From Clostridia bacterium (GTDB lineage Bacteria > Bacillota > Clostridia > Christensenellales > UBA1242): a stretch of 64,000 bases of DNA. Below, piece after piece: positions 4,426-64,000 of this stretch; the stretch's first letter is position 1; each line of letters begins with the position of its first letter. The stretch lies in assembly GCA_017625505.1 (NCBI GenBank), contig JAGAKV010000011.1:25212-89211 (forward strand). Direction: 5' to 3'. Position numbers and translations under genes: made by a program. Under the pieces are notes generated by a model. The model did not search any database, was not told where the DNA came from, and saw only the letters and a list, made by a program, of their open reading frames with translations.

Positions 4426-5217
4426 TTAAACTCTCTTTTTGATGTTTCGTCTTAGATAGCCCATAAGCCCCCTATATTTGTATGTGCAGTCAAAAATCTT
4501 TTTTGAGCCGTTGTGAATGTTTTCGCTTAAAAGAGTAAACGCTCTTGCGCTTTCAATTGACTGTAGTCGCACACCAATTGAGCATGAAGAGCCTATTGCA
4601 TCATCTTCAGGAATCACGCCAAGCAGCGGCAAATTGAGCGCTTTGACAATGCTTTCAATGTTAAGCAGCTCGCCGCTGAGCATCAAATCGCCTCTCATAC
4701 GGTTGATTACAAGCCCTTGATCACGCAAGCCGCTTTGTGAGAGTAGCGCCGAAACCTTTCCTGCATCTCGTATAGAAGAAAGATGAGGGGTTACAACGAT
4801 TAGCGCCTCATCAGCCGAAAAAACAGCCCTTTCAAAGCCCGCTTCAACTCCAGCTGGACAATCAATCAGAATATAGTCAAAACTGCTCTCAAGCATACTA
4901 AGCACGTTTTTGATATGCTCGCCAAGTATTGTAACTTTATTATAGGCGTGGGCGGAAGGCATAATATACAGCGACGAGATATTTTTATCCTGCACAAGCG
5001 CCTGTTTTGGCCTGCATTTGCCCATGATTACGTCCGTAATATCAAACACCACCTGATTTTCAATGCCCATAACGACATCAAGGTTGTTAAGTCCAATATC
5101 AACATCTATCAACACCACTCTAAAGCCAAGTTTTGCAAGATTGATTCCAAGATTGGCACATACCGTCGTTTTACCTACGCCACCTTTGCCGCTTGTCATT
5201 ACAATTTTTCTCGCCAT
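4426..5217 (-). CDS. minD: Septum site-determining ATPase MinD
   Basis: Deviant Walker A SGKGGVGKTT at the N-terminus, a length of 263 aa, and ParA/MinD-family similarity throughout. Confidence 0.9.
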   Translation of the reverse strand: MARKIVMTSGKGGVGKTTVCANLGINLAKLGFRVVLIDVDIGLNNLDVVMGIENQVVFDITDVIMGKCRPKQALVQDKNISSLYIMPSAHAYNKVTILGEHIKNVLSMLESSFDYILIDCPAGVEAGFERAVFSADEALIVVTPHLSSIRDAGKVSALLSQSGLRDQGLVINRMRGDLMLSGELLNIESIVKALNLPLLGVIPEDDAIGSSCSIGVRLQSIESARAFTLLSENIHNGSKKIFDCTYKYRGLMGYLRRNIKKRV

Positions 5218-5301: not shown

Positions 5302-6303
5302 TTATGTGTTTTCAACTATTCTCTTTAAAAGTTTATCATCATCAAGAAGTTTGCCTGCGCCCAGAATTGAAACATGCTCGGCATCTTCAACAATTTTAAA
5401 TGGATATTTTAGGTTTCTTTTCAAATAGTATTCAAGTCCAGACAAATTGCTCATTCCACCAGTAAACAGCACGCCGCTGTTGATAATATCATGAGAAACT
5501 TCTGGAGGAAGTGAAGTAATTGTAACGTCAACGCTTCGAACAATTTCCTCAAAGAAGGGATGAAGCACCACAGACAGATCTTTTGCTGAAATAATGTAAG
5601 ATCTTGGCACCTTGCTTTCTACATCAACGCCTGTCACTTCCATATTTAGAGAATCGTTTGGATATAAACTGCCCACCTCGATTTTAAGCGTTTCAGCCGT
5701 TCCCATTCCGATAAGAATGCCATGCTCATATGCGATTGTGTTTGCAATAGCAACATCTACAGCCTTACCGCCAAGTCCAAGGGTTGCACCTTTTATAATT
5801 GTATTTAAATTGACAACTGCAATGTCAGTATTTGCGCCGCCAATGTTTACTACCATGTTTGTTTTTGTTGAGCTTATATTTTTGCCTGCACCAATGAGTG
5901 AGCATATAACTGTAGGAACAAGTTCTACCCTCTTAAATCCAATTTCATACATGAGGTTTAAAAATGTCTCTCTTTCATCGTCTGTAAGTCCACAGTTTAT
6001 CAGAACAATGACGCTGTCAACTTTCTTTCTAAACTCAACTTTTGCAAAAAAGTATTCAAGAAGCTGCTTAAGATATTCATAATTTATAATCTTGCCATTG
6101 GTGATTGGGCTAAAGATTTCCGCGCTATCATTTGTTTTTCCCAGCATATCCTTTGCCTGTTGGCCAAACCCTGTGATTTTATAGCCATCTACCAGTGCTT
6201 CTGCGCAAACAAGAGTAGGCTCACACAGCGCAAACCCCTCATCTTTGACATATATTTTGGTATATGAACCACCAATTTCAATTGCATATTTAAATTTATC
6301 CAT
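5302..6303 (-). CDS. mreB: MreB/Mbl-family actin-like protein
   Basis: Actin-fold motifs IEIGGSYTKIYV, NIGGANTDIAV and FTGGMSNLSGL. I placed the start at MDKFKY (ATG 6303), which is preceded by AAAGGAGAAAG. Confidence 0.8.
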   Translation of the reverse strand: MDKFKYAIEIGGSYTKIYVKDEGFALCEPTLVCAEALVDGYKITGFGQQAKDMLGKTNDSAEIFSPITNGKIINYEYLKQLLEYFFAKVEFRKKVDSVIVLINCGLTDDERETFLNLMYEIGFKRVELVPTVICSLIGAGKNISSTKTNMVVNIGGANTDIAVVNLNTIIKGATLGLGGKAVDVAIANTIAYEHGILIGMGTAETLKIEVGSLYPNDSLNMEVTGVDVESKVPRSYIISAKDLSVVLHPFFEEIVRSVDVTITSLPPEVSHDIINSGVLFTGGMSNLSGLEYYLKRNLKYPFKIVEDAEHVSILGAGKLLDDDKLLKRIVENT

Positions 6304-6331: not shown

Positions 6332-7597
6332 TTAAACTGTTATTTTTACTGCTCTGGCGCCTACATTTATTGTCACACTATCGCCATTTGATATGTTAAG
6401 CAAGAAATAAATAAAGTCATTACGATCTTTGATCTCATATACTTTGCCGCTTGCGTCAATGCAGGAAGTAATAGTTCCCCCTGTCGAAAGCGTTCTGAAG
6501 GAAGATAAGCCTGTATTATCAAGAATATAATATCCTTCTTGTGTCATATTAAAGCCTGTAGCATATCTGCTGACATCTCTGCTGTATGTTTTTCCATTAA
6601 GATAGTAGTAATATGTGCCCACTTTGTAAATAAGAATATCTTTTGCAATGCTGGCCTCAATTGAGTCGATGCCGCTTATTCCTATTTTATCAAGAGTATA
6701 AATGGTATTTGCTCCATCCGCTTCATTGTTTTCAATAAGTTTGTCAATAATGCACATTGCAGGATAGATTGGAACAAAACCGTTCATTTGATTTCCGCCC
6801 GTTGTCGTCTCGTCTGTTGAAAGAGTGCTGAGGCCAATTAGATAGCCATCTTTATCAAAACAGCCGCCACCCGAGTTTCCTGGAGTGATTCCAACAGTCA
6901 TGTCAACCACATCTTCATACATGTTTGAAAGCACTTCCTTGCCGCTTACATATTCGACAGTCATCATGCTTAATACATCATTTGTTGCAATATTTCCCTC
7001 TGTAAATCTGTTGAGATAGTCTTGCTCATCGAGAGGACAGCCGATTGTGAAAATTTGTTGAATTTTAAATCTTTCGCCCTCGTCTGGATCAATTACGATA
7101 TCTTTCATGGTAACGTAATTTAGATTGCATGTGTCACTGTAGAGAACGGCAATATCAAGGTTCTCGTTTGCCCACAATACATTGCACTTGAATCTCTCTT
7201 CTTGCTCGGTCAATATTGTTACATCTAAGCTTGAATAATTGTCTGTACCCATGTCAATTACATGGTGATTTGTGACAATATAACTTCCCTTTGTTGCACC
7301 AAGTTTTCCCTCTTCTGTGTCAATGCCAGTTTTATATCCCTTTGAAGCAATGCAGACACCACTTCCAAGAGCGGCGTTTCCGCCATAGGAAACATTTACA
7401 GCAACGGTAGCGTTGCCCTCGATATAGTGATTTCCAATGTCGTATATATCCATATCTGCTGTGATTTGATCGGTCAGACAGTTGGTATCAGAATACACTC
7501 TTGGAGAATTAAAAAGAGGCATCAGAAAACTTATGCCGTAGGATAAAGCGAGTACTAATAAAAGGGTTGATAGTACTGTAATCCATGTTCTTTTCAT
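6332..7597 (-). CDS. Membrane-anchored trypsin-like (S1) serine protease
   Basis: N-terminal TM helix. Catalytic-triad contexts are TNHHV (His), DIAVL (Asp) and TPGNSGGG (Ser). Confidence 0.75.
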   Translation of the reverse strand: MKRTWITVLSTLLLVLALSYGISFLMPLFNSPRVYSDTNCLTDQITADMDIYDIGNHYIEGNATVAVNVSYGGNAALGSGVCIASKGYKTGIDTEEGKLGATKGSYIVTNHHVIDMGTDNYSSLDVTILTEQEERFKCNVLWANENLDIAVLYSDTCNLNYVTMKDIVIDPDEGERFKIQQIFTIGCPLDEQDYLNRFTEGNIATNDVLSMMTVEYVSGKEVLSNMYEDVVDMTVGITPGNSGGGCFDKDGYLIGLSTLSTDETTTGGNQMNGFVPIYPAMCIIDKLIENNEADGANTIYTLDKIGISGIDSIEASIAKDILIYKVGTYYYYLNGKTYSRDVSRYATGFNMTQEGYYILDNTGLSSFRTLSTGGTITSCIDASGKVYEIKDRNDFIYFLLNISNGDSVTINVGARAVKITV

Positions 7598-57757: not shown

Positions 57758-57789
57758 AAAAAAAAAATGCCATCTTTTTTCAGACGGCA
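57758..57789 (-). terminator. Rho-independent terminator after the Spo0A_C gene
   Basis: On the minus strand: TGCCGTCT-GAAAAA-AGATGGCA (8 bp including one G-U), followed by a T10 run. Confidence 0.7.
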
Positions 57790-58172
57790 CATTTTTTGCT
57801 TTTTTGTAAAATCTTATTGCTTTCCATAAATGCTTTTTCCGCAAGCAGACAAAGCATTTCACGTGGAGATGGTTTACAAATAGAAAAACGGATATGCATT
57901 CCTCTTTCAAAATCGGCAATTCCATTTCGCTTATAACTCACTTCAATTGCATGACGCATGGCACGATCAACAATGTCAAGCTTTACCCCATTATCCGATG
58001 CGATCTCTTGATATAACCCAACCCCAACTTTAAACTTCTTATCATTGTCATTTATAATCTTTTTTGCCCCCTCCTTAAAGAAAGTATACCCTTTCAAATT
58101 GGGTGATATCTTCAGCATAATCAAAAACAGCGACAACTTTTCTTCTATAAGAAGAGCAAAACATTCTTGCAT
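57780..58172 (-). CDS. Stand-alone Spo0A C-terminal (DNA-binding) domain protein, no receiver domain
   Basis: The start is taken at MQECF (ATG 58172) after GGAGG. ISPNLKGYTFFKEG, VDRAMRHAIEVSY.RNG and KPSPREMLCLLAEK align with the Spo0A effector motifs IKGYLYLREA, VERAIRHAIEVAWSRG and KPTNSEFIAMVADK. Confidence 0.8.
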   Translation of the reverse strand: MQECFALLIEEKLSLFLIMLKISPNLKGYTFFKEGAKKIINDNDKKFKVGVGLYQEIASDNGVKLDIVDRAMRHAIEVSYKRNGIADFERGMHIRFSICKPSPREMLCLLAEKAFMESNKILQKSKKCAV

Positions 58173-58193
58173 AATTCCTCCGTAGCATAAAGG

Positions 58194-58221
58194 ATTATAC
58201 TGATGTGGACGCAAAAGTCAA
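58194..58221 (-). promoter_or_regulatory. Promoter of the Spo0A_C gene
   Basis: On the minus strand: TTGACT (58221-58216), a 16-nt spacer, and TATAAT (58199-58194). Confidence 0.6.
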
Positions 58222-58332: not shown

Positions 58333-60180
58333 CTACGCTTTAAGCGTCAAATAGCCATACTTGCCAGTAGTTTCATCCAGTCCAGCGTAAGCATATGTTT
58401 TGTCGATCACCTTGCCGTTTGCTTCCCAGTTTGGAAGGGATGAGCAACTTAAAAACATATCTGTACTGCCAGAAACTTGATGCGTAAAGCCAGAAATAGA
58501 ACAGTTTGCTGAGGCCGCCAATGCGCTTGTTGTCCACTTGCTTCCAATATATATGTTTTCAAGAGCGCTGCACCCAGCAAAAATATGATGCATGTCTTGA
58601 ACTTTTGATGTGTCAAACGTTGACAAATCTAAAGTTGTAAGATTTGCATTGTTTTTAAATAAATGTTCCATAGACACAACATTAGCCGTTCCAAATCCAT
58701 TTAAATTAAGTGACGTTAAAGAGGACATTCCAGACAGCATATCTGTCATGTTTATGACTTGTTCATTGCTAAAACTCGAAAGGTCAAGAGATGTCAACGT
58801 TCGACAGTTGCGAAACATATACGTCATGGTGGTTGCACTTTTCGTGTTAAACGATGAAACGTCTAGACTTTCAAGGACAGTACATGCTTGAAACATCCAA
58901 TCAAACCGAGTCACCTTTGATGTATCAAAGCCATTCAGCCCCACAATGTTCTTAATTTTGAAGCACCCTGAAAACATTGCATCCATTTGCGTTACATTAG
59001 AGGTATTAAATGATGTAAGATCAAGCGACAACAGTGAGGAACAACTTGCAAACATCGATGTCATCACTTTGACATTTTGCGTATTAAAACTAGACACGTC
59101 AACCTCAGTTAAACTAGAACAATTTGAGAACATGCTAAGCATATTGGTCACTTTTGACGTGTTAAAATTTGATAAATCAAGAGAAGTTAGGCTTTTGCAG
59201 CCGTAAAACATATTTGACATATCCTTCACACTTGAAGTATCCCAACCCGTCATATCTATTTCTGTCAAATATGAGACCAAACCACTCTCTGATGCAAACA
59301 TGTTTGACATCTGTGTAACATTTGAAACATCAAAATGAGATAAATCAAGTTTGCTTAACTTTGTAGAATGAAACATCGCATGCATCGATGTGCATTTTGA
59401 TGTATTAAAATTTGAAATATCCAGCTGCTGAAGACTCATACAATATTGAAACATACCGGATATCGCTGTTAAATTGGGTGTAAACCATTTAGACAGATCG
59501 AGCGCAGTAAGGCTTCGACAATAATAGAACATATAGGAAAAACTTGTTGCATTTTCTGTATTAAGTTTTTCTAGTCCATCAATATTCGTAAGTACTTTAC
59601 AATTGTAAAACATCCCATAAAAATTAGTCACAACAGATGTATCAATGTTGTTGAATGCAATTTTTGTTAGCACGGATGACTTGACACCTGCCTCATTTAT
59701 TGAATAAACGTAATCCGCTCTGAAAAAATCTTTACAATCGGCTGGCATGGTGATTGTCTCATTTGAAAGGACAAGCATTGCGCCGATGTGCGATGATGTC
59801 TCGCGATTATAATAGGTGTAATAGTGGGCAAAGATGCTTTCGTCTTGTGCTTGACTTACGTCAATTGTAGAAAGCACGTCTGTGCTTACGAGGCTACCCC
59901 CACCCCGCGAAAACGCGTAGGTGGCGCGGTCAGCGTCGGTATAACTGTCAAAATAAATTTCAGTTATGACAGGGTTGCCGATTGACGAAGCCTCTTCGTT
60001 AAACTCTAAATATGCATTTTGAAAGTTTGTTTTGCCAATCATTGGATTTTTGGTGTAATAATAAATATTTGTATAAGTTTCGATTTGAGGCATTGAAACA
60101 GCAAAAACACCCATCGACATCGCGATGCAGACGAGAAATGAGTATAACACTACATAAATTGTTGTTTTTACCTTTTTCAT
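58333..60180 (-). CDS. BspA-family leucine-rich-repeat surface protein (DUF285-type ~25-aa repeats)
   Basis: More than 10 consecutive repeats of the type LDLS.FNTS.VT.M..MF..C.SL, with an N-terminal signal/anchor helix. Confidence 0.85.
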   Translation of the reverse strand: MKKVKTTIYVVLYSFLVCIAMSMGVFAVSMPQIETYTNIYYYTKNPMIGKTNFQNAYLEFNEEASSIGNPVITEIYFDSYTDADRATYAFSRGGGSLVSTDVLSTIDVSQAQDESIFAHYYTYYNRETSSHIGAMLVLSNETITMPADCKDFFRADYVYSINEAGVKSSVLTKIAFNNIDTSVVTNFYGMFYNCKVLTNIDGLEKLNTENATSFSYMFYYCRSLTALDLSKWFTPNLTAISGMFQYCMSLQQLDISNFNTSKCTSMHAMFHSTKLSKLDLSHFDVSNVTQMSNMFASESGLVSYLTEIDMTGWDTSSVKDMSNMFYGCKSLTSLDLSNFNTSKVTNMLSMFSNCSSLTEVDVSSFNTQNVKVMTSMFASCSSLLSLDLTSFNTSNVTQMDAMFSGCFKIKNIVGLNGFDTSKVTRFDWMFQACTVLESLDVSSFNTKSATTMTYMFRNCRTLTSLDLSSFSNEQVINMTDMLSGMSSLTSLNLNGFGTANVVSMEHLFKNNANLTTLDLSTFDTSKVQDMHHIFAGCSALENIYIGSKWTTSALAASANCSISGFTHQVSGSTDMFLSCSSLPNWEANGKVIDKTYAYAGLDETTGKYGYLTLKA

Positions 60181-61239: not shown

Positions 61240-61315
61240 GGACTGCTAGCTCAGTCGGTAGAGCATCTGACTCTTAATCAGGGGGTCCGGAGTTCGAGCC
61301 TCCGGCAGTCCACCA
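61240..61315 (+). tRNA. tRNA-Lys (anticodon CTT), CCA encoded
   Basis: Acceptor stem GGACTGC/GCAGTCC, D-arm AGCTCAGTCGGTAGAGC, anticodon loop CTCTTAA, and T-arm CCGGAGTTCGAGCCTCCGG. Confidence 0.92.
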
Positions 61316-61389
61316 AAACACATACCATAAGAACTTTAAACACATTATATGTTTTTAAATCAAATTCAGTTGGTATAATCATAAAAAAA

Positions 61390-61413
61390 GACTAGTTGCA
61401 ACTAGCCTTTTTT
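61390..61413 (+). terminator. Rho-independent terminator after tRNA-Lys
   Basis: 14-bp palindrome CTAGTTGCAACTAG followed by CC and a T6 run. Confidence 0.75.
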
Positions 61414-61672
61414 ATTGTTATAAATATAAAATGCTTAATCAAATTCAATAAACAAAGATATATCAACACTTTTTCACATTATTTTAAACCCTTTGCCTAG
61501 AATTATATTTTTAAAAAACAATCAAAATGAAACAATTATATTTATAACATTTTATAGATTACCACCCCCTTTTAACCATTAGAAAAAACAGATTGCCACA
61601 TTTTTTTGCGATGTCGCAATTTTTTTAGTAAAAAGCATTGACTTTTTCTTACACATCATTTATAATATAACT

Positions 61673-61766
61673 ACACAAAGCAAATGTTTTTTAACATTCT
61701 GTCGGCTTCGTTCCGACCTTTGCAAGGTGTAGGTGAAGTAAGATTTTATCTTACTTCTTTTTTTTT
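61673..61766 (+). ncRNA. Candidate small RNA (~95 nt) with its own consensus promoter and strong terminator
   Basis: TTGACT (61638-43), a 17-nt spacer, and TATAAT (61661-66). Internal hairpins are AATGTT/AACATT and GTCGG-CTTCGTT-CCGAC. The terminator is GAAGTAAGAT/ATCTTACTTC plus a T9 run (61735-61766). There is no RBS before the only ATG. Confidence 0.5.
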
Positions 61767-61976
61767 ATGTTGTAAATACTTTTCATATTCAACTAAAACA
61801 CAAACATTATTCACATCATATCTATTTTTAAAAACCCATAAAAAGAACTCTTTTAAAACAACCATTTTTTCTTTTGCTTGCATTATCTTATTTGTCTGTT
61901 TCATAGAGTCTTTTAAATAAGCTTTTTCATTATTATAAAGTATTGTTTCATCATTTATAATGCGTTTTTCTTTCAA
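61746..61976 (-). CDS. Small hypothetical protein (TTG start)
   Basis: 76 codons with AAGGAAGG 8 nt upstream of TTG 61976. Its 3' end overlaps the sRNA-candidate terminator. Confidence 0.4.
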   Translation of the reverse strand: MKEKRIINDETILYNNEKAYLKDSMKQTNKIMQAKEKMVVLKEFFLWVFKNRYDVNNVCVLVEYEKYLQHKKKEVR

Positions 61977-62005
61977 TGCTTTTCCTTCCTTTTTTCAAAT
62001 ATTTT

Positions 62006-62217
62006 CGGTTAAGTGTTACTATTGTCGAGTAGAGTAACACTTAACGGCAAGGCTTGGCTAAAGCCAAAGCCTATGCCGATATGAAAGCATTATTGTATAT
62101 CTGTTTGTAAAATGTTTGCTAACGCAAAAATTTTCTTACGAAAATTCAAGCATTTGACAAGCAGATATACAGTAATGCAAAGAGCAGTCAAGAAAACAAA
62201 ATGAAATATTTTGTTTT
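62006..62217. other. Array of four long stem-loops (structured RNA or DNA element)
   Basis: The helices are 62008-20/62033-45, 62046-58/62063-77, 62087-114/62151-178 (capped by two mini-hairpins) and 62193-202/62208-217. There is no ORF. Confidence 0.7.
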
Positions 62218-62431
62218 ACAAAACAATTTTTAAGAATTCACCTATATCAAAGTTTATATCTATAAGACCTTTATTTATAAATATGACTTTTATATTTTCT
62301 AAATCTTCGATAGTAAAATCAATTTTCTTGGCGAATTTATTTTGTAAAGTGCTGAAAGGCATACCAAGTTGAATAGCTAAATTTTTAATACTTATATTAT
62401 TATTTTTCATAAGCAATCTTAAATAAAACAT
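62216..62431 (-). CDS. Small HTH protein
   Basis: NISIKNLAIQLGMPFSTLQNKF is an HTH pattern. AGGTGG lies 5 nt upstream of ATG 62431. ATG 62410 is an alternative start. Confidence 0.5.
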   Translation of the reverse strand: MFYLRLLMKNNNISIKNLAIQLGMPFSTLQNKFAKKIDFTIEDLENIKVIFINKGLIDINFDIGEFLKIVL

Positions 62432-62440
62432 AAACACCAC

Positions 62441-63310
62441 CTATTCACAAATCAATTCTTGTAAAGTATAATTTTTAAAAAACTTATCTCTTAAAGCTTG
62501 TATCTGATATAAAAAAAGTTTACTTTGAGCTATAGTTTTATGGTAAACATACTTTTCTAACTCATCTTTAGTAATATTTAAACAGTTTGCATAATCTTCA
62601 ATATTACCATTTTCACGCATCAGTTGATAAATTTTAAAATCTTGAAAATTATATAATGTCTTTCCTTGCTTTTTAGCTTTTTCTCTTTCAAGCCATAATC
62701 GATGACAATTACTTGTTTCGAATTCATCACCATTATAATAAACATTTTTATAGAAAAAACCATTACAATTAAGCAAATCAAGAAAGTCAGCTCTAAACCC
62801 ACGAACCAATAAAACAAAGTCCTTTCTTGCTATCTTATGTATATTACAAATATCTTTAACCTTTTGTTTTTTAAAAAAATAACACATTAAAATTTTTTTA
62901 TTATCAAAATCATAGTTATTTATTAGTTCATTAAAAGACTTTAAAACAAGACTCTCGCATAAGATGTCAAAGTTATTACTTTTATCTTCTAAAACATCAT
63001 ATAAAAACAATTCTCTATCACCATTTTTAGAAATAGAAGTATCAAATGACATCAACAAATCATTTTGTTTAATTTTGTATAAACATTGCATAATTTTATT
63101 ATCTGCAATCTTTGAAAGCTCTAAAAATAAGTTATCTTTTGTTATATGGTTATTTTGTTTTATGTATTCTAACAAATCAATATAAACATCAAAGAGTATA
63201 TCATTTTTATAATCATCGAATTTATCCCCATAAAACCTTTTAATCTTTTGATTATATGAATTATTAAGGACTTTAAATTCAATACCATCTAAACCTTTAA
63301 AAACATTCAT
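62441..63310 (-). CDS. Hypothetical protein with sigma-factor-like / multi-HTH features
   Basis: 289 aa, very AT-rich codons. ...KKQKVKDICNIHKIARKDFVLLVRGFR... and ...DYANCLNITKDELEKYV... look like HTH segments. The family is uncertain. Confidence 0.5.
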   Translation of the reverse strand: MNVFKGLDGIEFKVLNNSYNQKIKRFYGDKFDDYKNDILFDVYIDLLEYIKQNNHITKDNLFLELSKIADNKIMQCLYKIKQNDLLMSFDTSISKNGDRELFLYDVLEDKSNNFDILCESLVLKSFNELINNYDFDNKKILMCYFFKKQKVKDICNIHKIARKDFVLLVRGFRADFLDLLNCNGFFYKNVYYNGDEFETSNCHRLWLEREKAKKQGKTLYNFQDFKIYQLMRENGNIEDYANCLNITKDELEKYVYHKTIAQSKLFLYQIQALRDKFFKNYTLQELICE

Positions 63311-63312
63311 AG

Positions 63313-63495
63313 TTACCCCTTATTATTTGTTTGATAAATTAACGCGCGAACTTCAGCCAAAAGCGAAACACTAGCTACATACACCCTTACAGGATAACCT
63401 AGTTTTTCAAGTGAACTAGCAAAAGTAAGCGCTTTTTCTTTGTCATCAAATTTTTTAACTTTACCATAATGTTTTACTTCATACAATGTTTTCAT
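63313..63495 (-). CDS. Small hypothetical protein
   Basis: 60-aa ORF. Its ATG overlaps the stop of an upstream 48-codon ORF (ATGA). It ends 2 nt before the next gene. Confidence 0.45.
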   Translation of the reverse strand: MKTLYEVKHYGKVKKFDDKEKALTFASSLEKLGYPVRVYVASVSLLAEVRALIYQTNNKG

Positions 63496-63638
63496 TTTAT
63501 TTTCTCCTTTCTATCTAAAACACAAGATTTAATATATTGATAAACTTTTTTATTAAATAAATCATAATCCAAAGGAGAAGCACGAGAAGTTGCAAACTCT
63601 TTATTGTCTTTTCTTGAAAATACATAACCAATAACCAT
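63492..63638 (-). CDS. Possible 48-aa ORF (below the ORF-track cut-off)
   Basis: My manual translation gives MVIGYVFSRKDNKEFATSRASPLDYDLFNKKVYQYIKSCVLDRKEKIK. Its stop overlaps the next ATG. The RBS is weak (GTGGGG). Confidence 0.25.
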   Translation of the reverse strand: MVIGYVFSRKDNKEFATSRASPLDYDLFNKKVYQYIKSCVLDRKEKIK

Positions 63639-63676
63639 ATAAACCCCACTTATATTTACGCACAATAATTATTCGT

Positions 63677-63719
63677 ATTGCAAATATTTATGTATAGTTT
63701 AATAAAGATTGCAAATATT
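63677..63719. promoter_or_regulatory. Two copies of ATTGCAAATATT in the divergent switch region (operator candidates)
   Basis: Exact 12-mers at 63677-63688 and 63708-63719, 31 bp apart, between the leftward operon and the XRE gene. Confidence 0.5.
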
Positions 63720-63795
63720 GTCAACTAATTTTAAACAAATACTTGATATTTTTCTAAAAATTTTATAAGATATACAAATAAAAGGAGCAAACTTT

Positions 63796-64000
63796 ATGAA
63801 ATTAAAAGAAATTAGAACAAAATGTTTAATGACTCAACAAGAAGTAGCACAAAAATTAAATATAACACAATCAACATACAGTGGCTATGAGTCCGGCAAA
63901 TACCAACCAAGTATTGACATTTTAATTGCCATAAGCAAATTATTTAAGGTGTCTATAGATTATTTACTAGGCAATGAAAACGAGTTTACAATCGATATGT
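63796..64000 (+). CDS. XRE-family (cI/Cro-like) HTH regulator, 3'-truncated by the window edge
   Basis: AAAGGAG RBS upstream. MKLKEIRTKCLMTQQEVAQKLNITQSTYSGYESGKYQPSIDILIAISKLFKVSIDYLLG is a canonical HTH_3 pattern. Confidence 0.85.
   Translation, partial: MKLKEIRTKCLMTQQEVAQKLNITQSTYSGYESGKYQPSIDILIAISKLFKVSIDYLLGNENEFTIDM

Follow-up and report, generated by a model that had tools for sequence, protein, structure and literature searches.

An intergenic hairpin array on a Rep-less integrative element of gut Clostridia as a candidate inovirus-type origin and packaging region

We analyzed a 64-kb stretch of genomic DNA from a Clostridia bacterium (contig JAGAKV010000011.1), referred to here as the window, and focused on a dense array of long hairpins that lies on a small mobile element inserted beside a tRNA gene. 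An earlier reading of the sequence, which we call the original prediction, had described four consecutive helices (A–D) at this position and proposed that they represent either a large noncoding RNA (ncRNA) or a DNA-level origin or packaging site. Direct reading, a repeat finder and minimum-energy folds all recover the four helices where they had been placed (Table 1). The flanking genes are likewise as described, with the stop codon of a small helix-turn-helix (HTH) gene at 62216 and the start of a 76-codon open reading frame (ORF) at 61976, and no gene-sized ORF occupies the array. Two ORFs of 30–33 amino acids (aa) overlap the hairpin region, both apparently spurious, and none exceeds 33 aa.

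In the window, the hairpin block has a compact D-C-B-A order. Helix D, at its 5′ edge, may also weakly terminate transcription of the HTH operon. Helix C, whose arms read GCATTACTGTATATCT...AGATATACAATAATGC and whose capping mini-hairpins lie at 62115-62128 and 62129-62146, is the longest inverted repeat of the region, with 32-nt arms that the repeat finder scores as 88% complementary (62087-62118/62147-62178). The stem of helix A consists of GGTTAAGTGTTACT/AGTAACACTTAACC and encloses the 12-nt loop CTACTCGACAAT (62021-62032); the repeat finder extends this helix to 18-nt arms at 89% (62003-62020/62033-62050). Folding of positions 61977-62230 as RNA yielded -90.4 kcal/mol for the plus strand (z -10.6) and -79.1 for the minus strand (z -9.0). 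Folded as single-stranded DNA (ssDNA), the 223-nt block reached -57.0 (z -11.7) and -54.0 (z -10.3) on the plus and minus strands, respectively, and none of 200 shuffled sequences was as stable. The minimum-energy folds contain helices A and B, helix C with both mini-hairpins, and helix D. The hairpin array is far beyond chance on either strand.

Table 1. Features of the hairpin block and of the element that carries it (window coordinates).
Feature	Coordinates	Strand	Remarks
Intergenic (IG) cassette (whole hairpin block, 223 nt)	61995..62217	-	From the HTH gene stop codon to just upstream of the ribosome-binding site of the 76-aa ORF
Invariant 19-mer GACAATAGTAACACTTAAC (helix A loop and 3′ arm)	62008..62026	-	Putative nick/Rep-recognition region; single exact copy in the window, 0.02 expected
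Helix A	62008..62045	-	Predicted plus-strand origin hairpin; arms 62008-62020/62033-62045, 13 perfect bp
Helix B	62046-62058/62063-62077	-	GC-rich hairpin abutting helix A; putative accessory origin hairpin
Helix C	62087..62178	-	28-position stem 62087-62114/62151-62178 with two capping mini-hairpins; T/Y shape
Helix D	62193..62217 (arms 62193-62202/62208-62217)	-	10-bp A/T-rich hairpin, then TTTTCTT on the minus strand
76-aa ORF	61746..61976	-	Directly downstream of the IG, where rep sits in phages
Small HTH protein (71–74 aa), satellite backbone	62216..62440	-	Weak HTH and phrog_4583 repressor matches
289-aa sigma-factor-like protein, satellite backbone marker	62441..63310	-	C-terminal XRE-like HTH
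Attachment (att) core CCGGCAGTCCACCA, right end of element	61301..61314	+	3′ end of tRNA-Lys(CTT); tRNA at 61240-61315

An exact look-up of the 289-aa protein encoded upstream of the array retrieved six metagenome contigs that carry the same DNA and extend past the end of the window (L001–L006; loci are given L numbers throughout). The element they reveal is ~4.6 kb long, and the window contains its right-hand 2.7 kb. One strand encodes a 552-aa large serine recombinase and a 145-aa HTH_3 (cI-like) repressor. The divergent strand carries, in order, ORFs of 57, 60, 289 and 71–74 aa, the last being the HTH protein, followed by the hairpin block and the 76-aa ORF. A 14-bp att direct repeat, TGGTGGACTGCCGG, is found at both ends of the element (L001 7427-7440 and 11997-12010), the left copy lying ~1.9 kb past the window end within the 3′ end of the serine-recombinase gene. 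In L001, the left repeat (7416-7440) falls in the last codons of that gene, and integration and excision would therefore change the recombinase ORF at its 3′ end or in its direct surroundings. In L003 and L005 the identical element borders the 3′ end of another tRNA, and in L002 a variant tRNA-Lys fragment; as it has at least three different flanks, the element moves as one piece. The mobile element suspected next to a tRNA is thus 4.6 kb long, encodes a serine recombinase and occupies the 3′ end of tRNA-Lys.

BLASTN of the element portion of the window (61316-64000) against 50,697 phage and 72,556 plasmid records gave no match. Relatives of the array could be traced through the 19-mer that spans part of the loop and the 3′ arm of helix A. 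Exact copies occur at 22 loci in genome contigs (one genome per species, 596 Gb; ~4 expected by chance), and none was found in IMG/VR viral contigs. Nearly all of the loci belong to Clostridia, including Christensenella, Oscillospiraceae, Lachnospiraceae and [Ruminococcus] torques; about 4 of the 22 matches are probably due to chance or hard to interpret from their surroundings, among them L027 and L033, where the match falls within coding sequence, and L017, whose setting is ambiguous. At least 18 phage or satellite loci conserve the helix A loop together with its 3′ arm. At 13 Clostridia loci, the 19-mer is followed, usually within ~60 nt, by an ORF of ~330 aa that matches PF23343 (REP_ORF2-G2P, the filamentous-phage gene II protein family; E 4e-11) and phrog_3419, annotated as "rolling circle DNA replication initiation". 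The motifs of this Rep protein (FATLTF, IHFHLL, SYVKKYVEK) compare with FDTLTL, LHFHAV and FYVAKYVNK in the phiX174 A protein. Most of these 13 loci also encode, upstream of the hairpins, a Zot-like P-loop ATPase (PF05707; phrog_197; inovirus pI assembly) and a conserved protein of ~123–141 aa, which gives the order Zot, 123-aa gene, IG and rep on one strand. In L025, a 7.6-kb contig on which all listed genes share one strand, the region further upstream holds two small ORFs for membrane proteins of 65 and 52 aa, as well as larger ORFs whose N-terminal parts include hydrophobic segments. Judged by their sequences, the loci that combine the 19-mer, Rep and Zot are inoviruses of Gram-positive hosts, with the hairpin array as their intergenic region.

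The window block has the same orientation relative to its operon as the IG of these phages, though rep and zot are absent. Neither the 64-kb window nor the full 4.6-kb element (L001) contains a homolog of Rep (by tblastn) or Zot, with all element ORFs accounted for, and no homologs of coat or virion genes are present among the element genes. Because there is no cognate Rep on the same replicon, we class the hairpin block as a copy borne by a satellite rather than as the origin of a phage.

Through homologs of the 289-aa protein, we reached further small elements with the same backbone (L007, L008/L009, L010/L011, L012, L013 and L035). A serine recombinase is encoded in L010/L011, L012, L013 and L035, and a tyrosine integrase in L008/L009. 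The L012 contig, 4,113 bp long, overlaps itself by 30 nt at its ends and therefore represents an element assembled as a circle. The backbone proteins (p57, p60, the sigma-like protein, the HTH protein and p76) have homologs in satellite-like loci only and none in phage loci; because this backbone is unrelated to phage genes, the element is not a deletion derivative of a phage. At least six satellite lineages keep an IG with the nick motif (the window, L013, L010/11, L012, L020 and L035). In two of them the resemblance to a phage extends well along the IG: the IG of satellite L035 matches that of phage L025 at 94% identity across 274 nt, with nothing alignable outside it, and the IGs of satellite L012 and phage L016 are 82% identical over 338 nt. 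On these comparisons, the IG is all that satellites and phages have in common. A profile built from a 6-sequence alignment of the 289-aa family found nothing in genome, viral or metagenome collections, and a 28-sequence alignment of the family was too diverse for a locus search.

When IGs of phages and satellites were folded as ssDNA and read on the coding (viral-sense) strand, a common anatomy emerged. In hairpin H1, two mini-hairpins cap a long stem whose arms include TTGTCAA/TTGACAA, producing a T or Y shape like that of window helix C, and larger IG versions have several short hairpins after it. A counterpart of helix B, GC-rich, variable in sequence and abutting the last hairpin, is present in all 21 folded IGs. 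The last hairpin, corresponding to helix A, has the 12-nt loop CTACT(T/C)GACAAT and the 3′ arm AGTAACAC(TTAAC). We consider it highly probable, from sequence and architecture, that the window block is homologous to the inovirus intergenic/origin region.

Departures from this anatomy were also seen. In six loci (L014, L018, L022, L024, L026 and L030), a second flavor of IG carries, ~100–250 nt upstream of the 19-mer, inverted iteron-like repeats (AATGTGGTAAAsT ... TTTTCCAyATT) that replace the T-shaped hairpin and are followed by the GC-rich and nick hairpins. L032 (motif at 5322) is a distant inovirus whose Rep is 27% identical; its 19-mer lies directly upstream of rep, and the 5′ arm of helix A is absent. 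In L034 (motif at oriented position 4430), the exact 19-mer accompanies a CRESS-type Rep (PF02407 Viral_Rep plus RNA_helicase domain), a weak Zot-like match and a tyrosine integrase. The nick motif appears to be common to divergent Rep types.

Covariation was counted on an alignment of nine well-aligned IGs from three satellites and six phages (A4), because a MAFFT alignment of the helix B/A region from 20 loci (A3) was structurally unreliable. Paired cells make up 96.2% of A4, versus 38–51% with partners slid; double-sided changes affect 13 pairs, versus 2–4 with partners slid; and none of 500 shuffles reached the observed values. The original prediction had proposed covariation as a check on the helices, and those of A4 covary above both the slid and the shuffled controls. 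H1 (helices 2-3) covaries, compensatory changes occur in the helix B counterpart (helix 7), and those G.T wobbles that are invariant or frequent sit on the viral-sense strand. Covariation and strand-biased G.T pairs therefore point to pairing within one strand, as would fit the ssDNA of a rolling-circle phage. A long-range helix called by RNAalifold (A4 columns 150-164 with 336-353) was removed as probably spurious. As a separate observation, the conserved loop ACATTGTT of the second IG hairpin (A4 columns 150-157 with 345-353; e.g., L015 and L025) is complementary to the nick motif, (T)GACAAT.GT, which could be chance or could reflect contact between two loops that would mask the nick site.

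RNA pairing would account for the covariation equally well, and the block might instead be a structured ncRNA on either strand, serving the element as a regulatory or ornate RNA. The RNA fold is very stable, two G-U-type pairs are available on the plus strand, and read-through from the HTH operon is likely. Against this, Rfam 15 at gathering score passes only two tRNAs in the whole 64-kb window, leaving the array without a match to any family; a clear Rfam hit was among the outcomes that the original prediction had named as refuting it. A permissive scan (61400-62500, E<=10) returned only miRNA-precursor models at 30 bits versus a cut-off of 139, which are generic and match any long hairpin, and RNA-OUT at 25 versus 41. 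No promoter or terminator brackets the block on the plus strand; its best-conserved part, a hairpin loop with its 3′ arm, agrees with DNA nick sites and in phages is invariably followed by rep; and the wobbles of the related family favor the opposite, viral-sense strand. It had been argued that two T-G pairs in helix C can form only if the plus strand is the RNA. These non-Watson-Crick positions, 62093/62172 and 62104/62161, are G.T on the plus strand and hence C.A on the predicted viral (minus) strand. The argument fails, since G.T pairing is also possible in ssDNA and one of the T-G pairs is G-C in L013. We regard an RNA as a very doubtful explanation of the block. Of the two readings first offered, the DNA-level origin or packaging site is the one supported, by homology in sequence and architecture to the Zot-rep intergenic region.

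A near-identical copy of the block is carried by satellite L013. It matches window positions 61995-62217 at 212 of 223 nt (95%); identity just outside the block is ~50% on both sides, and the backbone proteins are 23–44% identical, with the exception of p57 (76%). The near-identical block amid a divergent backbone therefore defines a discrete cassette, and its sharp edges in the two backbones point, on this sequence comparison, to cassette exchange. The 11 differences comprise 8 at unpaired positions, 2 that make up one compensatory pair and 1 that repairs a mismatch. Four are in loops (62207 in helix D, 62138 and 62123 in the helix C caps and 62027 in helix A), two on unpaired bulges of helix B (62073 and 62066) and two in the D-C linker (62187 and 62183). 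Both remaining events lie in helix C, as a G-C to A-T double change at 62162 with 62103 and at position 62104 (partner 62161), which is properly paired in L013 and mismatched in the window. With 146 of 223 positions paired, the probability that all 9 non-compensatory changes miss paired bases is ~7e-5. The original prediction had named non-compensatory disruption of the helices in homologous loci, combined with the lack of a transcript, as refuting it; no base pair is broken in this copy.

These substitutions also bear on whether the block is a non-functional relic, in an element that is a decayed inovirus prophage or a recombinant that kept the IG by chance. Such an origin would agree with the absence of Rep and structural genes and with our failure to find a helper with a matching helix C. 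It agrees poorly with substitutions that preserve every pair, with the retention of an IG bearing the nick motif in at least six satellite lineages despite proteins at 23–44% identity, and with an element that is intact, has att repeats, occupies several insertion contexts and has a relative seen as a circle. A relic seems to us quite improbable.

The loop of helix A offers a specific prediction for how the block would function. Its 12 nt, CTACTYGACAAT, expose a phiX174-like sequence in an M13-like hairpin layout. The annotated phiX174 origin, CAACTTG^ATATTAATAACAC (rep_origin 4306), agrees with the family consensus CTACTTGACAATAGTAACAC at 16 of 20 positions and with the window at 15 of 20, a likeness with a chance probability of ~6e-6 per register. 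The M13 gene II protein nicks, at what we take to be the site, in the loop of GAGTCCAC-GTTCTTT^AATA-GTGGACTC, a position not annotated in the record. The M13 hairpin GAGTCCAC-GTTCTTTAATA-GTGGACTC and the window hairpin GAGTGTTACT-CTACTTGACAAT-AGTAACACT have the same stem-loop layout, with AATAGT at the loop/stem junction in common. Because the loop resembles both the phiX174 origin and the M13 hairpin layout, we predict two possible registers for a nick on the window minus strand, 62026/62025 (phiX-like CTYG^A) or 62024/62023 (M13-like ^AATAGT). The displaced and packaged strand would be the window minus strand, because the nick motif and all phage genes place it there.

Promoter-like sequence in the same hairpin raises the alternative that the block is the transcription control region of the element, with a terminator (helix D), operators for HTH or sigma proteins (helices C, B and A) and a promoter for the 76-aa ORF, and that in phages it is the promoter/operator of rep. 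In its favor, TCGACA-16-GAAAAT is oriented toward the 76-aa ORF, with a perfect TTGACA in relatives, and the block separates two genes of a single operon in an element rich in HTH proteins. Origin and rep promoter often overlap in rolling-circle replicons, and a promoter role for the downstream gene may coexist here with an origin role. As an explanation of the block itself, we find transcription control unlikely. The -10 box is poor and not conserved among loci (GAAAAT, GGAATA, GGAATG), and operators need no 28-bp arms with compensatory changes and capped mini-hairpins. The covariation and strand-biased wobble indicate intramolecular pairing, the satellite regulators are absent from phages that have the same IG, and the loop agrees with mapped nick sites of HUH proteins. 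A sigma-70 promoter embedded in the stem of helix C was considered separately and rejected, as its hexamer spacing is 8 or 13 nt.

A hairpin beside a conserved nick-like sequence is also the layout of an origin of transfer (oriT), and small relaxase-less integrative mobilizable elements exist (PMC11389934). The block could accordingly be an oriT or a plasmid-type single-strand origin (sso), with the circle mobilized by a conjugative element or behaving like a rolling-circle plasmid. We consider this most improbable, as no relaxase, coupling protein or type IV secretion system gene is present in the element or beside the motif in any of the 22 loci, and the motif is tied to phage genomes that encode Zot and G2P-type Rep. 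Single-strand origins of the ssoA type have a CS-6 motif, TAGCG[T/A], in a terminal loop, plus RS-B; TAGCG, which we take to be the CS-6 core, is absent from both strands of 61995-62217. Two further candidates were set aside: a retron msr/msd or recombinase guide RNA, for which there is no reverse transcriptase and no evidence, and a type I toxin-antitoxin system, as the 76-aa ORF is not hydrophobic.

Weighing these readings, we think it probable that the block is a DNA-level origin and packaging region of the inovirus type, carried as a helper-dependent cassette on a Rep-less integrative satellite. On balance, we also favor a helper-dependent satellite lifestyle for the element, which would make it a "natural integrative phagemid". 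Several points weigh against the origin/packaging assignment. Between the window and phages, the primary-sequence match is limited to helix A and the motif (38–75 nt), no phage matching the window's own helices B–D was found, and helices B and C are equated with phage hairpins by where they lie and how they fold, not by sequence. The sequence of helix C is found only in the window element and L013; no helper phage with a window-type helix C was detected, and exact-pattern scans (TTGTCAAATGCTTGAATTTTCG) of metagenome and viral contigs were empty. The wobbles of helix C lie on the non-viral plus strand, opposite to the trend in the related IG family. The 19-mer served as the search key, and its invariance is in part ascertainment. 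Finally, because the helix A loop holds a -35 box of the consensus type (TTGACA in relatives, TCGACA in the window), with GAAAAT 16 nt on, promoter and origin roles are inseparable.

If the block is an inovirus-type origin and packaging cassette, we envisage the following cycle. The serine recombinase would excise the element as a circle, and a co-resident inovirus would supply an HUH Rep of the phiX174-A/M13-gpII type. This Rep would nick the conserved loop sequence CTACTYGACAATAGTAAC of helix A, with helix B as an accessory origin hairpin, and rolling-circle synthesis would displace a minus-strand circle. In the displaced ssDNA, the T-shaped helix C may form and serve as packaging signal, as a minus-strand priming site or as both, while helix D would close the upstream operon. 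Helper Zot and coat proteins could then extrude the ssDNA of the element in trans.

For the proteins neighboring the block, Pfam and PHROGs searches gave weak HTH matches only. The 289-aa protein has no Pfam match and belongs to a rare family, with 29 representatives at 50% identity among 1.84 billion proteins. Its AlphaFold2 model (pLDDT 85.6) resembles an ECF sigma factor, the class of its best PDB matches, with an XRE-like HTH C-terminal to it, and we raise the question of whether the protein could sense or hijack a helper. Homologs of the small HTH protein (32–44% identity) occur only in satellite-like loci, and an exact-match look-up of its 74-aa form returned no record. The 76-aa ORF has a single weak local match, to an ORF of satellites L010/L011, and no homolog in phage loci. 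Convergent with this ORF and overlapping its 3′ end is a candidate structured RNA of ~95 nt on the plus strand (61672-61770, z -3.9), which ends in a strong terminator (61735-61757 and the T run after it). It is preceded by a palindrome, TTGCGATGTCGCAA (61606-61619), and by a near-consensus promoter, TTGACT-17-TATAAT (61638-61666); the palindrome also occurs, in the form TTGCGACGTCGCAA, in satellites L010, L012 and L013. The segment 61606-61770 is probably an operator plus a small antisense or regulatory RNA of the element. Host genes near the tRNA include one for a 615-aa DUF285/BspA-type leucine-rich-repeat surface protein (58333-60180, minus strand; Pfam E 5e-95) and a Spo0A_C-like ORF (57780-58214, minus strand). 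In L001, a terminase gene ~6 kb further along points to a separate tailed prophage nearby.

The window element and its relatives may represent a wider class of undescribed inovirus satellites of gut Clostridia, a proposal for which we see the chances as evenly balanced. Members would be 4–5 kb long, without Rep or virion genes, and would swap a helper origin/packaging cassette between backbones. They would integrate at tRNA genes, with a tyrosine integrase in place of the large serine recombinase in some lineages, and would carry a cI-like switch together with ECF-sigma-like and small HTH proteins. In the literature we searched, there was no description of a Rep-less, self-integrating inovirus satellite, nor of the origin region or packaging signals of a Clostridial inovirus; a paper on Enterocloster inoviruses (PMC10061712) is silent on satellites, replication origin, packaging, recombinase, intergenic region and rolling circle.

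Filamentous phages of Gram-positive gut bacteria have been recognized only recently, and this locus and its relatives provide a concrete, testable origin, with an invariant 19-mer in a hairpin loop and covarying hairpins around it. If our interpretation is correct, this would be the first map of a Gram-positive inovirus origin region, with a phiX174-like nick site in a hairpin loop. It would widen the range of phage satellites by a Rep-less, self-integrating type that uses cis signals alone, and would suggest a chronic, non-lytic route of gene transfer in the gut microbiome. The origin, packaging signal and tRNA-targeting serine recombinase would also constitute natural parts for phagemid-type vectors in Clostridia.

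Among known systems, the IG of the Ff phages (M13/f1/fd) comprises a packaging hairpin (A), minus-origin hairpins (B and C) and plus-origin hairpins (D and E). The Clostridial IG similarly consists of consecutive noncoding hairpins between morphogenesis and rep genes on the viral strand, with the nick site in the loop of an 8–13-bp hairpin on the rep side. It differs from Ff in having no overall sequence similarity, Gram-positive Clostridia hosts and a T-shaped hairpin with two caps; its Rep motifs and nick sequence are nearer to the phiX174 A protein than to M13 gpII, and in the window the rep gene expected after the IG is absent. Like phiX174 (Microviridae; 30-bp origin), the associated Reps have motifs 1–3, including the two-tyrosine YVxKYVxK. 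Unlike the arrangement seen here, the phiX174 origin is internal to gene A and is not presented by a hairpin loop, and the phages here are Zot-encoding filamentous phages, not microviruses.

As satellites, RS1 and TLC carry initiator genes themselves (rstA and cri), and to our knowledge the known inovirus satellites (RS1, TLC and pDolos) all have a replication function of their own. The window element has no replication gene and would need a helper for replication too; it also differs from these three in its Gram-positive hosts, and from RS1 and TLC in using its own large serine recombinase at a tRNA, not host XerCD/dif. It resembles RS1 and TLC of Vibrio cholerae, which are chromosomally integrated, and pDolos of Shewanella in being small, lacking virion genes and, as we propose, requiring a filamentous helper (10.1101/2023.11.28.569023; PMC11389934). 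The proposed combination of origin and packaging signal in cis with gpII and virion proteins in trans is that of laboratory phagemids and the f1 miniphage (defective interfering particles), but those are artificial or are products of phage deletion, whereas here the backbone is unrelated to phages, integrates by itself and has its own regulators. A further parallel is provided by the betasatellites and deltasatellites of geminiviruses, which, according to PMC12193555, are Rep-less, have hardly more than the origin stem-loop in common with their helper and are replicated in trans by the helper HUH Rep. In contrast to the element described here, those are satellites of eukaryotic viruses that do not integrate and are packaged in icosahedral capsids.

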